A stretch of DNA of 64,000 bases, taken from assembly GCF_013315695.1 (NCBI RefSeq), contig NZ_CP054353.1. One strand, 5' to 3'. The stretch is from Escherichia coli (lineage in GTDB: Bacteria; Pseudomonadota; Gammaproteobacteria; Enterobacterales; Enterobacteriaceae). The translations under genes were made by a program, and so were the position numbers. Shown here piece by piece: positions 6,135-37,029 of the stretch; within the stretch, counting starts at the first letter, position 1, and each line of letters starts with the position of its first letter. The notes under the pieces are model-generated. The model was not told where the DNA came from. It saw nothing but the letters and a program-made list of their open reading frames with translations, and did no database searches.

Positions 6135-6318
6135 ATTTCTCTGAGATGTTCGCAAGCGGGCCAGTCCCCTGAGCCGATATTTCATACCACAAGAATGTGG
6201 CGCTCCGCGGTTGGTGAGCATGCTCGGTCCGTCCGAGAAGCCTTAAAACTGCGACGACACATTCACCTTGAACCAAGGGTTCAAGGGTTACAGCCTGCGG
6301 CGGCATCTCGGAGATTCC
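6135..6318 (+). ncRNA. ssrS: 6S RNA
   Basis: Sequence atttctctgagatgttcgcaagcgggccagtcccctgagccgatatttcatacc...ggcatctcggagattccc matches recalled 6S RNA; lies between zapA and fau; 3-prime end approximate. Confidence 0.9.
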
Positions 6319-6941: not shown

Positions 6942-6997
6942 GGGCGACACACCTGCATCGCCCTGATTGACATCGTTGATTCTTTAACCTAATTTAG

Positions 6998-7140
6998 TGA
7001 GTAAGGGTAAGGGAGGATGACTCCTCCCCTGAGACTGACTGTTAATAAGCTGGGAAACTTATGAGTAACAGTACAATCAGTATGATGACAAGTCGCATCA
7101 TAACCCTTCTCCTTCAAGCCCTCGCTTCGGTGAGGGCTTT
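6998..7140 (+). ncRNA. sibC: SibC antisense sRNA (antitoxin of ibsC); boundaries approximate
   Basis: Plus-strand region fully antisense to ibsC, ending in hairpin gccctcgcttcggtgagggc plus ttt at 7118-7140; locus between fau and serA. Confidence 0.45.
7042..7101 (-). CDS. ibsC: Type I toxin peptide IbsC (19 aa, hydrophobic)
   Basis: Reverse strand reads ATG ATG CGA CTT GTC ATC ATA CTG ATT GTA CTG TTA CTC ATA AGT TTC CCA GCT TAT TAA = MMRLVIILIVLLLISFPAY. Confidence 0.8.
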   Translation of the reverse strand: MMRLVIILIVLLLISFPAY

Positions 7141-9515: not shown

Positions 9516-9641
9516 ATACTCTAAATAATTCGAGTTGCAGGAAGGCGATAAGAGAGTGAATCCCCAGGAGCTTACAGAAGTAAGTGACTGGGGTGAGCGA
9601 ACGCAGACGCAGCACATGCAACTTGAAGTATGACGAGTATA
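9516..9641. repeat. ERIC/IRU intergenic repeat, copy 1 (126 bp)
   Basis: Contains gtgaatccccaggagcttacagaagtaagtgactggggtgagcg; near-identical in inverted orientation to 25169-25293. Confidence 0.75.
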
Positions 9642-13016: not shown

Positions 13017-13910
13017 ATGAAACGCCCGGACTACAGAACATTACAGGCACTGGATGCGGTGATACGTGAACGAGGATTTGAACGCGCGGCACAAAAGCTG
13101 TGCATTACACAATCAGCCGTCTCACAGCGCATTAAGCAACTGGAAAATATGTTCGGGCAGCCGCTGTTGGTGCGTACCGTACCGCCGCGCCCGACAGAAC
13201 AAGGGCAAAAACTGCTGGCACTGCTACGCCAGGTGGAGTTGCTGGAAGAAGAGTGGCTGGGCGATGAACAAACCGGTTCGACTCCGCTGCTGCTTTCACT
13301 GGCGGTCAACGCCGACAGTCTGGCGACGTGGTTGCTTCCGGCGCTGGCTCCTGTGTTAGCTGATTCGCCTATCCGCCTCAACTTGCAGGTAGAAGATGAA
13401 ACCCGCACTCAGGAACGTCTGCGCCGCGGCGAAGTGGTCGGCGCGGTGAGTATTCAACATCAGGCGCTGCCGAGTTGCCTTGTCGATAAGCTCGGTGCGC
13501 TTGACTATCTGTTCGTCAGCTCAAAACCGTTTGCCGAAAAATATTTCCCTAACGGCGTAACGCGTTCGGCATTATTGAAAGCACCTGTGGTCGCCTTTGA
13601 CCATCTTGACGATATGCACCAGGCCTTTTTGCAGCAAAACTTCGATCTGCCCCCAGGCAGCGTACCGTGCCATATCGTTAATTCTTCAGAAGCGTTCGTA
13701 CAACTTGCTCGCCAGGGCACCACCTGCTGTATGATCCCGCACCTACAAATCGAGAAAGAACTGGCCAGCGGTGAACTGATTGACTTAACGCCGGGGCTAT
13801 TTCAACGCCGGATGCTCTACTGGCACCGCTTTGCTCCTGAAAGCCGCATGATGCGTAAAGTCACTGATGCGTTGCTCGATTATGGTCACAAAGTCCTTCG
13901 TCAGGATTAA
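13017..13910 (+). CDS. argP: LysR-family regulator ArgP (IciA), 297 aa
   Basis: Internal start [43 protein letters not shown]... Confidence 0.95.
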
Positions 13911-19544: not shown

Positions 19545-20460
19545 TGACTCGTCCCGTCACGATCTTCAGCAATATGCTGAAGCATCGTGGCGGTATAACG
19601 ATGATTTCTGATTGAATAAAGATATTCCTGCATATACATCGGCCTGTGCGGCGCATCAAAATATTTCAGCGTTGCCGGATTCACCAGTCGCCAGGCAAAA
19701 TGCGGGATCACCGTCAGAAAATGTCCGCGCTCCACGGCGCTGATTTTGGCCATAAAACTGTAGGGACGATAAATAATGGTGGGATTGATCCCACAAGGAC
19801 GCATATTCGCATCAATCATTGCTTCGAAGTTAGCCCGGTTCTGAAAGCGCATTTGTAGCCAGGGTAGCTCCTGAAGCAGCTCTTGCTCTTGTCGCTCTTC
19901 ATAACGACGAGAAACGAGAAAGCCCAATCGCAGCGGCGGTAGTTCACTGATAGTCAGGTTTTCCAGTTCCTGAACTCGTGCAGACACATGCTGTGGGGAG
20001 ATTATAAAATCTAACTGACGGTCAAAAAGATTATCGATAACGCCGTTTTCGCTGAACTCAACTGGCTGGGCGGTCACGCCTTCATACTTATCTCCGAGAC
20101 TAATCAACTGATCGAAAATAATTGTCGGATAAGTATTATCTATGCCAATCACAATTTCTCGTGAACGACGCCCTGAGTTATGGATTTCATTATCAATCGC
20201 AGAAAGTCGTTGATAAACCGGGAACAGTTTTTGATACAGTTCCTGTCCGGCTTTATTGAGGCTGATATTATTATCTTTGCGGGTAAATAGCGTATAGCCA
20301 ATTTGTTCTTCCAGCGCGGCAATGCTTTTACCAAATGGCGAAGCCGTCATATACCAAATGGCGAAGCCGTCATATGGATTTTTTCTGCCGCCCGGGCAAT
20401 ATTATTGGTTTGCGCTAATAAAATGAAATTGCGCATCTTTTTCGAAATAAAAATGTCCAT
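19541..20460 (-). pseudogene. ygfI: LysR-family regulator ygfI, reading frame broken by a 23-bp tandem duplication
   Basis: N-terminal HTH frame MDIFISKKMRNFILLAQTNNIARAAEKIHMTASPFGI* terminates; downstream frame restarts MTASPFGKSIAALEEQ... (269-aa ORF 19541-20350). Confidence 0.75.
20331..20376. repeat. Direct tandem duplication of 23 bp (ccaaatggcgaagccgtcatat[a/g]) inside ygfI
   Basis: Two adjacent copies read directly at 20331-20353 and 20354-20376. Confidence 0.85.
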
Positions 20461-21368: not shown

Positions 21369-21952
21369 GTTAGTCTCTCCGTGTTAATTGACTTGCCTAA
21401 AATTCAGGACCTCTGGAGGCAAGCTTAGCGCCTCTGTTTTATTTTTCCATCAGATAGCGCCTAACTGAACAAGGCTTGTGCATGAGCAATACCGTCTCTC
21501 GCCAGCTGCAAGGCAATAAACCACATAACACATCCCACTACCAGATTGATAATGCGTTGTGATTTTGCCGTGCGCAGGCGCGGTGCCAGCCAGGCTGCGA
21601 GAATAGCCAGACCAAAGAACCACAGGAAAGAGGCGCTAATTGTCCCGAGCGCAAACCAACGTTTTGGTTCCACATCAAGTTGCCCACCAAGGCTGCCCAG
21701 TACAACAAAAGTATCCAGGTAAACATGCGGATTCAGCCAGGTCACTGCCAGCATGGTGGCGATAATTTTCCATCTGCCTTGCTTCAGGACTTCGGCACTG
21801 GCTAACTCAATATTGCTGCTCATCGCTGTTTTAAAAGCGCCAAAACCATACCACAGCAAGAAGGCTACGCCGCCCCAGGTGACCAGCGCCAGCAACCACG
21901 GCGACTGCATCAATAACGCGCTGCCACCAAAAATCCCGGCGCAAATCAGGAC

Positions 21953-21961
21953 CAAATCGCT
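21953..21961. repeat. 9-bp target-site duplication (caaatcgct), left flank of IS1 copy 1
   Basis: Identical 9-mer at 22730-22738 immediately after the IS1 right end. Confidence 0.9.
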
Positions 21962-22016
21962 GGTGATGCTGCCAACTTACTGATTTAGTGTATGATGGTG
22001 TTTTTGAGGTGCTCCA

Positions 22017-22292
22017 GTGGCTTCTGTTTCTATCAGCTGTCCCTCCTGTTCAGCTACTGACGGGGTGGTGCGTAACGGCAAAAGCACCGCCGGACATCAG
22101 CGCTATCTCTGCTCTCACTGCCGTAAAACATGGCAACTGCAGTTCACTTACACCGCTTCTCAACCCGGTACGCACCAGAAAATCATTGATATGGCCATGA
22201 ATGGCGTTGGATGCCGGGCAACAGCCCGCATTATGGGCGTTGGCCTCAACACGATTTTACGTCACTTAAAAAACTCAGGCCGCAGTCGGTAA
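22017..22292 (+). CDS. insA: IS1 InsA (91 aa)
   Basis: GTG start; [43 protein letters not shown]... Confidence 0.95.
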
Positions 22293-22714
22293 CCTCGCGC
22301 ATACAGCCGGGCAGTGACGTCATCGTCTGCGCGGAAATGGACGAACAGTGGGGCTATGTCGGGGCTAAATCGCGCCAGCGCTGGCTGTTTTACGCGTATG
22401 ACAGGCTCCGGAAGACGGTTGTTGCGCACGTATTCGGTGAACGCACTATGGCGACGCTGGGGCGTCTTATGAGCCTGCTGTCACCCTTTGACGTGGTGAT
22501 ATGGATGACGGATGGCTGGCCGCTGTATGAATCCCGCCTGAAGGGAAAGCTGCACGTAATCAGCAAGCGATATACGCAGCGAATTGAGCGGCATAACCTG
22601 AATCTGAGGCAGCACCTGGCACGGCTGGGACGGAAGTCGCTGTCGTTCTCAAAATCGGTGGAGCTGCATGACAAAGTCATCGGGCATTATCTGAACATAA
22701 AACACTATCAATAA
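22211..22714 (+). CDS. insB: IS1 InsB reading frame (167 aa; expressed as InsAB fusion by -1 frameshift)
   Basis: Product ...[50 protein letters not shown]... Confidence 0.9.
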
Positions 22715-22729
22715 GTTGGAGTCATTACC

Positions 22730-22738
22730 CAAATCGCT
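22730..22738. repeat. 9-bp target-site duplication (caaatcgct), right flank of IS1 copy 1
   Basis: Matches 21953-21961. Confidence 0.9.
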
Positions 22739-22975
22739 GATAGCGCAAAGTAAGGCAATCATAATGTGGTACTGACGACGAATGCCCTGATTCATCACAA
22801 AAGCATTTTGTGGACCGAGCGGTAGGATCATAGCTGCGCCAAGCGCAAGACCTTGAAAGTAATAAGAAAACACGTTGGATATTCCGAATTAAGTATCTGA
22901 TGCAGAGACTATATCGCGGGATTGTTATTAGCGGAAATTGATAATATTAATTGGCAATCAGAAAAACTAATAAGA

Positions 22976-23000
22976 GAGAGGCCAGAGAGTATTATCTGGC
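22976..23000 (-). terminator. Putative terminator downstream of mscS
   Basis: Hairpin aggccagagagtattatctggcct near mscS stop, followed on the minus strand by a T-rich stretch. Confidence 0.4.
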
Positions 23001-23011
23001 CTCAGCGTTGA

Positions 23012-25168: not shown

Positions 25169-25293
25169 TATACTCGTCATACTTCAAGTTGCATGTACTG
25201 CGTCTGCGTTCGCTCACCCCAGTCACTTACTTATGTAAGCTCATGGGATTCACTCTCTTGTCGCCTTCCTGCAACTCGAATTATTTAGAGTAT
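25169..25293. repeat. ERIC/IRU intergenic repeat, copy 2 (inverted relative to copy 1)
   Basis: cgctcaccccagtcacttacttatgtaagctcatgggattcac core; reverse complement aligns with 9516-9641 with a handful of mismatches. Confidence 0.75.
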
Positions 25294-31722: not shown

Positions 31723-32228
31723 GGCGTTAATTCCTTTAAGGTGGTCGTTACTGCCAGCGTCAGCGCCGTTTTGACCATCCCGCTAAAACGCGCCTCTGAC
31801 CAGACGGCGAAATCGGCGAACTTCATCGCTTTCAACGCGTCATAGAGCGTCGCATTGCGGGTTATGCTATTGACGTTGCTGATAAAATCCCAGGTCATAT
31901 CATCAGCAAATCCGGGCGTTTCATCCTGTTCGTTCAGGTAATGCCAGAACTGGGAAAAATGCGTGATATCGGCGTACAGCCATTTATCCATTTTCCCCAG
32001 CGCATAAATCAAACGCAGTGCAACATCAATATCGTCAAGCGGGCCGCTTTGGGCGAGTAACGGCTTCACTGCATATTCGACGATCTCTTCATCGTTATCG
32101 ACAAACAGCGACGGCAGAAACTGGCGTATCCCCTGGAGCAAAATAGAATGCGCAGTATTCATAAATGAAAATAAATTGTCCTGTGCATCCAGTTGCTCAA
32201 GCACATCATCTTCTGTCAGCGTCGCCAT
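31719..32228 (-). CDS. yggD: MtlR/FumE-family protein YggD (169 aa)
   Basis: ORF product MATLTEDDVLEQLDAQDNLFSFMNTAHSILLQGIRQF... Confidence 0.9.
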   Translation of the reverse strand: MATLTEDDVLEQLDAQDNLFSFMNTAHSILLQGIRQFLPSLFVDNDEEIVEYAVKPLLAQSGPLDDIDVALRLIYALGKMDKWLYADITHFSQFWHYLNEQDETPGFADDMTWDFISNVNSITRNATLYDALKAMKFADFAVWSEARFSGMVKTALTLAVTTTLKELTP

Positions 32229-34489: not shown

Positions 34490-34503
34490 TTTTACCTCTG
34501 TAA

Positions 34504-35892
34504 TCAGTGTTTATGTTCGGCGGTTAATTGATTAAATAAAGTGTCGAGTTTTGGATCGCCAATATAGTTATTAATCAATATCAGTGATTTATCCGTCACA
34601 CGTTTCACGCGCCCTTCCAGACTGGCATGAGTAACGACGATATCCGCATCCGCAGGCACGTTTTCTATCGCGTAATGTTTTACTTCAATTGGCAGCCCCG
34701 CTTTTTCCAGACGTTTACGGAAGGTGGTTGCGCCCATCGCGCTGGAGCCCATCCCCGCATCGCAAACAAAGGCGATACGCTTAACCCGGCTTAACGAGAA
34801 TGCACCCTCTTGTTTCATCGCCTTAACCGCATTGGCTGACTGAGCAAACTCATCTTCGTTCTCCGTTTCCACCGTTTTTTCCATCTTCAGTATCAGCGAA
34901 GTGATAGCAAAGGACACCAGGGTACCTACCGTAACACCAGCAATTGTCGCCAGGAATGAGCCTTTCGGCGTCAGCGCCAGGTAAGCAAAGATAGACCCCG
35001 GACTTGGGCCAGCCACCAGACCACCGTCCAGTAAGTTAAACATCCAGGTGCCAGACATACCGCCCGCAATCATGGCAATAATGGTCAGCGGCTTCATCAG
35101 CACATATGGGAAATACAGTTCGTGGATCCCACCGAGGAAGTGAATAATCATCGCACCAGGTGCAGAGCGCTTACTCATCCCTTTACCAAACAGAGTGAAT
35201 GCCAGCAACAGTCCTAAGCCAGGCCCTGGATTGGATGCCACCATAAAGAAGATGGATTTGCCGTTAACTGATGCCTGTTGCATTCCCAGCGGATAATAGA
35301 CGCCCTGATCGATCGCATTATTAAGGAAAAGCACTTTCGCCGGTTCATTGATGACTGACAGCAGAGGCAGATAACCCGCATGTACCAGCGCCTCAATACA
35401 CTCTTTGACGAAAGTATTGGCAATTAACACCGCCGGGCCGATCACTTCAAAACCCAGCAGACAAAGGAGCATCCCCGCGATACCTAATGAGAAGTTATTG
35501 ATAACCATCTCAAAACCGGCAGGTATGCGTTTTTCCAGTGCCTTATCGACATATTTTATGACCAGCCCACCTAACGGTCCCATAATCATTGAACCAAGGA
35601 ACATCGGGATTTCTGCGCCGACGATTACACCAATTGACCCTATTCCGCCCATGACTGCGCCGCGTTTACCGCCGACTAAATGGCCACCGGTAGAACCAAT
35701 CATCACGGGCAATAAATAGGTAATCATCGGGCCGACAATTTTGGCGAAATGTTCGTTAGGCAGCCAACCGGTGGGAATAAATAACGCTGTAATAAAACCC
35801 CAGGCAATAAAAGCACCAATATTGGGGATGACCATTGCAGTCAAAAAGCCCCCAAAAGCCTGGACCTTTGCACGAGCAGACTTGTTTTCCAT
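34504..35892 (-). CDS. cmtA: PTS mannitol-family EIICB component (462 aa)
   Basis: ORF product MENKSARAKVQAFGGFLTAMVIPNIGAFIAWGFITALFIPTGW... Confidence 0.95.
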   Translation of the reverse strand: MENKSARAKVQAFGGFLTAMVIPNIGAFIAWGFITALFIPTGWLPNEHFAKIVGPMITYLLPVMIGSTGGHLVGGKRGAVMGGIGSIGVIVGAEIPMFLGSMIMGPLGGLVIKYVDKALEKRIPAGFEMVINNFSLGIAGMLLCLLGFEVIGPAVLIANTFVKECIEALVHAGYLPLLSVINEPAKVLFLNNAIDQGVYYPLGMQQASVNGKSIFFMVASNPGPGLGLLLAFTLFGKGMSKRSAPGAMIIHFLGGIHELYFPYVLMKPLTIIAMIAGGMSGTWMFNLLDGGLVAGPSPGSIFAYLALTPKGSFLATIAGVTVGTLVSFAITSLILKMEKTVETENEDEFAQSANAVKAMKQEGAFSLSRVKRIAFVCDAGMGSSAMGATTFRKRLEKAGLPIEVKHYAIENVPADADIVVTHASLEGRVKRVTDKSLILINNYIGDPKLDTLFNQLTAEHKH

Positions 35893-36243: not shown

Positions 36244-36252
36244 CTCGCTGAT
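36244..36252. repeat. 9-bp target-site duplication (ctcgctgat), left flank of IS1 copy 2
   Basis: Identical 9-mer at 37021-37029. Confidence 0.9.
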
Positions 36253-36307
36253 GGTGATGCTGCCAACTTACTGATTTAGTGTATGATGGTGTTTTTGAGG
36301 TGCTCCA

Positions 36308-36583
36308 GTGGCTTCTGTTTCTATCAGCTGTCCCTCCTGTTCAGCTACTGACGGGGTGGTGCGTAACGGCAAAAGCACCGCCGGACATCAGCGCTATCTC
36401 TGCTCTCACTGCCGTAAAACATGGCAACTGCAGTTCACTTACACCGCTTCTCAACCCGGTACGCACCAGAAAATCATTGATATGGCCATGAATGGCGTTG
36501 GATGCCGGGCAACAGCCCGCATTATGGGCGTTGGCCTCAACACGATTTTACGTCACTTAAAAAACTCAGGCCGCAGTCGGTAA
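36308..36583 (+). CDS. insA: IS1 InsA (91 aa)
   Basis: Translation identical to the 22017-22292 product. Confidence 0.95.
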
Positions 36584-37005
36584 CCTCGCGCATACAGCCG
36601 GGCAGTGACGTCATCGTCTGCGCGGAAATGGACGAACAGTGGGGCTATGTCGGGGCTAAATCGCGCCAGCGCTGGCTGTTTTACGCGTATGACAGGCTCC
36701 GGAAGACGGTTGTTGCGCACGTATTCGGTGAACGCACTATGGCGACGCTGGGGCGTCTTATGAGCCTGCTGTCACCCTTTGACGTGGTGATATGGATGAC
36801 GGATGGCTGGCCGCTGTATGAATCCCGCCTGAAGGGAAAGCTGCACGTAATCAGCAAGCGATATACGCAGCGAATTGAGCGGCATAACCTGAATCTGAGG
36901 CAGCACCTGGCACGGCTGGGACGGAAGTCGCTGTCGTTCTCAAAATCGGTGGAGCTGCATGACAAAGTCATCGGGCATTATCTGAACATAAAACACTATC
37001 AATAA
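36502..37005 (+). CDS. insB: IS1 InsB reading frame (167 aa)
   Basis: Translation identical to the 22211-22714 product. Confidence 0.9.
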
Positions 37006-37020
37006 GTTGGAGTCATTACC

Positions 37021-37029
37021 CTCGCTGAT
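37021..37029. repeat. 9-bp target-site duplication (ctcgctgat), right flank of IS1 copy 2
   Basis: Matches 36244-36252. Confidence 0.9.

Follow-up and report, generated by a model that had tools for sequence, protein, structure and literature searches.

An inherited IS1 insertion interrupts the arginine exporter gene argO in a small lineage of Escherichia coli

An IS1 element lies within argO, the gene for the arginine exporter, in the 64-kb stretch of E. coli DNA analysed here (hereafter the window), which raises the question of whether the gene is genuinely interrupted, how the interruption arose and spread, and what remains of ArgO function. The original prediction held that a complete 768-bp IS1 with an intact 9-bp target duplication occupies positions 21953-22738 and splits argO after codon 48. 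All of this was borne out: the element has exactly that length, canonical ends and intact insA and insB' frames, and the interval runs from the first to the last base of the two target duplications inclusive. The parts of the element and its duplicated target are as follows.

21962-22729, plus strand, opposite in orientation to argO: complete IS1 (IS1A-like), 768 bp
21962-21984, plus strand: IRL, the left terminal inverted repeat, GGTGATGCTGCCAACTTACTGAT
22707-22729, minus strand: IRR, the right terminal inverted repeat, GGTAATGACTCCAACTTATTGAT
22017-22292, plus strand: insA ORF, 91 aa, zinc-ribbon/HTH regulator
22211-22714, plus strand: insB' reading frame, open
22268-22274, plus strand: AAAAAAC (A6C) motif, read in the sequence, site of the programmed -1 frameshift joining InsA to the InsB' frame
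22017-22714, plus strand: conceptual InsAB' fusion, 232 aa, through the -1 shift
21953-21961: left copy of the target duplication CAAATCGCT, argO codons 46-48 on the minus strand
22730-22738: right copy of the target duplication CAAATCGCT

The inverted repeats are 23 bp long, and IRL and IRR are complementary at 18 of the 23 positions. A degenerate pattern for IS1 ends matches four times in the 64-kb window and not once in 100 shuffles; the four matches are both ends of two IS1 copies, and the copy in argO has no mismatches at either end. The window contains the 9-mer CAAATCGCT at two places and no others, each abutting one end of IS1. The repeat at the junctions is 11 nt long if chance identity reaching 1 nt into each end of the element is counted in, and the duplication is 9 bp and not 11 because the canonical GGT...ACC termini set the limits of IS1. 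The conceptual InsAB' fusion scores 245 bits against the NCBIfam IS1 transposase model NF033558 (cut-off 100), while the Pfam domains Zn_ribbon_InsA, HTH_Tnp_IS1 and DDE_Tnp_IS1 are recorded for IS1 copies identical to this one, and in the identical copies of the carrier genomes PGAP annotates a 'programmed frameshift'. A promoter-like site overlapping IRL (21969-21996) points inward, to insA. In its length and inverted repeats, in its insA-insB' frames with the A6C motif, and in its 9-bp duplication, the element in argO is a typical member of the IS1 family.

The other copy found by its ends lies downstream in the window.

36253-37020, plus strand: second IS1, 768/768 identical to the argO copy and in the same orientation, inside cmtB (PTS mannitol IIA)
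36244-36252 and 37021-37029: target duplication at cmtB, CTCGCTGAT, 9 bp

Between the two direct copies lie 13.5 kb of DNA comprising the 5' part of argO, mscS, fbaA, pgk and epd, an ECF transporter cluster, and fumE, glpX, yggP and cmtA. The glycolysis genes fbaA and pgk would be lost in a deletion between the copies; amplification is conceivable, and the bracketed segment is a possible substrate for it in the future.

As for the target gene, argO is encoded on the minus strand from a GTG start at 22873, and 144 nt of it (48 codons, ...CAISDL) precede IS1, which is where the split had been placed. The duplicated 9-mer corresponds to argO codons 46-48, AGC GAT TTG (S-D-L).

22649-22873, minus strand: chimeric ORF, 74 aa, ArgO codons 1-48 (22730-22873), then 26 codons from IS1 and a stop
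21461-21961, minus strand: argO 3' fragment, codons 46-211 and stop
22874-23011, minus strand: upstream control region of argO, between the stop of mscS and the start of argO, 138/138 identical to K-12 MG1655
23003-22978: terminator-like hairpin of mscS
13017-13910, plus strand: argP, the LysR-type activator of argO, intact, 297 aa

Taking out IS1 and one copy of the repeat in silico restores an uninterrupted ArgO of 211 aa, which scores 427.7 bits against the ArgO equivalog NF006801 (cut-off 298) and matches Pfam LysE at 2.8e-55. The restored protein is identical to the CFT073 allele ARGO_ECOL6, a common one present on at least 1000 contigs, and comparison with the K-12 protein (translated from NC_000913.3) gives M104L, L165I and A179S. 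In the window itself no unbroken 211-aa frame is present, and the matches to the ArgO and LysE models just given hold for the reconstructed gene only. The gene order yggE-argO-mscS-fbaA-pgk is that of K-12.

Elsewhere in the window, Rfam models at gathering score find only 6S RNA (ssrS, 6135-6318) and the Sib antitoxin RNA opposite ibsC (6967-7117), both ordinary core features. A 126-bp repeat is present at 9516-9641 and 25169-25293 in inverted orientation and with 96% identity, one copy immediately preceding a LysR-family regulator gene on the far side of rpiA and one between fbaA and pgk; from its size it may be an intergenic repeat of the ERIC/IRU type.

The comparison with related genomes that had been proposed as a check finds the identical argO::IS1 junction in two complete chromosomes, MSB1_4I (Australia, rectal swab) and AF3 (UK, blood culture), and the same junction also in UGAA01000001, CAXKQU010000001 and the KE702323 scaffold. 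The exact 74-aa chimera is found on 94 contigs in 139 index blocks, strains KTE69 and KTE143 and several GenBank accessions included. The longest contig measures 10-20 kb in 67 of the 139 index blocks with the chimera, a size that fits short-read assemblies breaking at two IS1 copies 13.5 kb apart. The window and MSB1_4I are 99.93% identical over 40.2 kb, both IS1 copies included, and this match together with the shared junctions makes the insertion genuine and inherited. Relatives with 99.8%-identical flanks keep the segment and have neither IS1 copy. In AF3 (NZ_OZ547117.1, 17296-18063) a third identical IS1, oppositely oriented and with the duplication AACACTGAT, has inserted between yggP and cmtA at a site equivalent to window ~34503-34511. 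Since AF3 has this extra identical copy, IS1 transposition is probably still ongoing within the lineage, and the element looks active there given that the window copies agree at 768/768 positions and the additional AF3 copy has a duplication of its own.

Some smaller changes in the same region were seen along the way. At window position 32135, in fumE, the window has G and MSB1_4I has A; PGAP flags fumE with an internal stop in MSB1_4I, and the gene is intact in AF3. In AF3 scpC is frameshifted. The LysR-type gene srsR/ygfI (minus strand) contains at 20330-20375 a perfect 23-bp tandem duplication, two copies of accaaatggcgaagccgtcatat, which shifts the frame and leaves an ORF from an internal ATG only (269 aa). 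As MSB1_4I, AF3 and three other argO::IS1 carriers lack this duplication, it is private to the genome of the window.

Among complete E. coli genomes the argO::IS1 junction is rare, being present in 2 of 5,426. We surveyed argO with four tiles, each blind for ~40-48 nt at its ends and detecting large interruptions, not point mutations or small indels; on this basis 5,422 of 5,425 complete genomes have the empty site in one piece, and the three further tiles, which take in the promoter and the remainder of argO, are unbroken in 5,425 of 5,425. PGAP labels both argO halves in MSB1_4I and AF3 as pseudogenes flanking an 'IS1A family transposase', and full-text literature searches for argO together with IS1 returned no report of the allele. 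The knockout is already visible in public annotation as a pseudogene, and it is a textbook IS1 knockout of a conserved non-essential exporter gene, fixed in one small lineage rich in IS1, and not novel biology. The original prediction had missed the lineage-wide inheritance, the pseudogene annotation, the identical IS1 13.5 kb away and the rarity of the interruption across E. coli.

We read the locus as an ordinary IS-mediated null, produced by insertion of an IS1A-type element into chromosomal argO in a single ancestral event and inherited since, and give this reading a probability of roughly 0.93. A structurally intact IS1A-type element would have transposed into argO codons 46-48 with the usual 9-bp duplication, leaving the ArgP-controlled promoter to drive only a 74-residue chimera (48 ArgO and 26 IS1-encoded residues), while the remaining 166 argO codons would be stranded behind IS1, where no promoter or ribosome-binding site was detected. 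The expected outcome is removal of arginine export and raised sensitivity to canavanine. The event probably occurred once, in an ancestor from which a small, human-associated and IS1-rich lineage of E. coli has inherited and kept argO::IS1. Because the rest of argO is undecayed, the insertion appears to be recent on an evolutionary scale, and precise excision between the two 9-bp direct repeats could in principle reverse it.

Among the alternatives, the one that survives best accepts the insertion and proposes that this lineage was under positive selection for losing ArgO, for example through arginine retention in the host, and that the loss was not a neutral by-product of IS1 expansion. In its favor, argO is otherwise almost universally uninterrupted and yet the null has been retained in Australian and UK isolates and is present on many public contigs, and the gene has been hit a second time, by IS1X2 in an avian strain and only 33 bp away. 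This second insertion, in APEC-O117H42 (NZ_CP172331.1, 3134-3919), has the duplication CTGACGACG, equivalent to window 22772-22780; beyond these two insertions no large interruption of argO was seen among the 5,426 complete genomes. It is an event independent of the one in the window: the two elements are 94.3% identical and the flanks 97.7-98.7% identical, which indicates a different chromosomal background. However, recurrence is not evident from just two independent events in 5,426 genomes, and the other IS1 hits nearby in the lineage (cmtB and the extra AF3 copy) fit undirected expansion of IS1. The clustering can also be explained by target preference, given an IHF-like consensus at argO and a 9-mer held in common with the cmtB target.

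22730-22742, minus strand: perfect match to the IHF consensus, TATCAGCGATTTG, overlapping the right target copy at argO

IHF sites reportedly occur at IS1 ends and at an IS1 hot-spot, an observation attributed to Gamas and colleagues in 1987. The IHF consensus WATCARNNNNTTR has 15 matches in the window against 3.9 expected, 4 of the 15 lying in IS1 ends, and the argO and cmtB (36244-36256) targets have the 9-mer TCGCTGATA in common, with the register of the duplication shifted by 3 nt. These data hint at a sequence-guided choice of target by IS1, and such a preference is a sufficient explanation for the nearness of the two argO insertions. As a general rule for IS1 targets in the lineage, the IHF consensus was considered and set aside, since it fails at the third site in AF3 and, judged by eye, only its core is present at the cmtB target.

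Weighing these points, we regard positive selection as unlikely. A more far-reaching version, in which argO::IS1 would be a selected, lineage-defining and reversible change, with the shut-off of efflux benefiting a human gut/bloodstream clone and the 13.5-kb segment ready for tandem amplification, is to our minds less probable still.

The ordinary null also has to be weighed at the level of function. ArgO is described as an arginine exporter, and argO-null E. coli as canavanine-hypersensitive, in a passage of PMC8498466 that cites Nandineni & Gowrishankar 2004. In the window the break falls inside the most hydrophobic 19-mer of ArgO (residues 37-55), just after D47, with LVLICAGI beyond it. 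A consensus scan of the minus strand found no promoter-like site upstream of the argO 3' fragment, and inspection by eye found no Shine-Dalgarno motif before its TTG. In the carrier genome MSB1_4I only the two halves of argO are found and a second copy is absent. Because a hydrophobic helix is broken, the 5' part ends in a chimera, the 3' fragment comes without detected expression signals and no second argO is present, a null allele is the best reading; judged from these features argO::IS1 is almost certainly null, and loss of ArgO-mediated export of arginine and canavanine is strongly implied. Other exporters might partly compensate for the loss.

It could be argued instead that the allele is not null and that the 3' part of argO (codons 48-211, with the TTG at 21955) is expressed through a promoter of IS1, either outward or hybrid, and provides partial export, by itself or together with the 74-aa chimera. 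The ORF required for this, 164 aa with a TTG start, does exist and on its own scores 321 bits against the cut-off of 298 of the ArgO model, and the ends of IS1-like elements are reported to provide a -35 box for adjoining genes, which we counted in favor of residual function. Against it stand the result of the consensus scan, which covered the minus strand near IRL, the TTGGCA within IRL, which has no usable -10 at 16-18 nt, the TTG without a Shine-Dalgarno motif and the position of the break within the hydrophobic helix. Furthermore, PMC8498466 cites a paper, Pathania et al. 2016, whose title states that ArgO requires its N-terminal domain for function and also names a role for an aspartate pair. 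A weak outward promoter in IS1, or read-through into the 3' fragment, may nevertheless occur, a question on which a consensus scan is of limited power. Altogether, we find residual ArgO function very unlikely.

Two further explanations can be dismissed briefly. That a repeat-induced misjoin placed IS1 in argO during assembly has next to no chance of being right: IS1 is indeed multi-copy, with at least 40 matching places in MSB1_4I, and repeats are a classic cause of misassembly, but a perfect 9-bp duplication lies exactly at the IS1 ends, the identical junction recurs in at least five independently produced assemblies, complete chromosomes included, and short-read contigs of ~13.8 kb, near the inter-IS1 distance, end in IS1 just past the 5' argO fragment, so that the artefact named in the original prediction as its possible undoing falls away. 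Joint arrival of both IS1 copies with the intervening 13.5 kb, as a single Tn9-like composite transposon, which two identical copies in direct orientation might suggest, is given practically no weight and was rejected, as no single duplication surrounds the whole unit of IS1, cargo and IS1; each copy instead has its own 9-bp duplication and the outer flanks differ (CAAATCGCT versus CTCGCTGAT), the enclosed genes are in native K-12 order, removal of IS1 restores both interrupted genes, and close relatives keep the segment with neither IS1.

An inherited, IS1-mediated null in argO would mean that the isolate is to be scored as ArgO-deficient, with canavanine hypersensitivity and lack of ArgP-dependent arginine efflux as the predicted phenotype. 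The argO::IS1 and cmtB::IS1 junctions together are specific markers, for PCR or in silico, of one small lineage. Since that lineage carries argO::IS1, ArgO appears to be dispensable for persistence in humans, which is a modest point. The value of the locus lies mainly in annotation and as a strain marker, and it opens no new biology.

Compared with known systems, the element itself is closest to IS1A of K-12 MG1655 (NC_000913.3, 19796-20563), with which it shares 767 of 768 nt, the same ends, the same insA/A6C/insB' layout and a 9-bp duplication; the single change is at position 444, where the argO copy has G instead of T, and the location within argO is not found in K-12. The IS1X2 insertion of APEC-O117H42 resembles that in the window in being in the same orientation, in the 5' part of argO and with a 9-bp duplication, but its site is 33 bp nearer the argO start codon (42 bp when the starts of the two elements are compared). 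Tn9-type composites likewise have two direct IS1 copies around a segment of DNA, whereas the DNA bracketed in the window is native chromosome and the two copies are separate insertions and not a transposed unit. The nearest functional counterparts are the argO (yggA) null mutants of K-12, such as Keio ΔargO::Kan, in which the same gene is affected and whose ArgP-controlled promoter region is identical to the one here at 138/138 positions; the same loss of arginine and canavanine export would be expected for argO::IS1, which differs in being a natural insertion and not an engineered deletion, in leaving a 74-aa chimera and in being potentially revertible.
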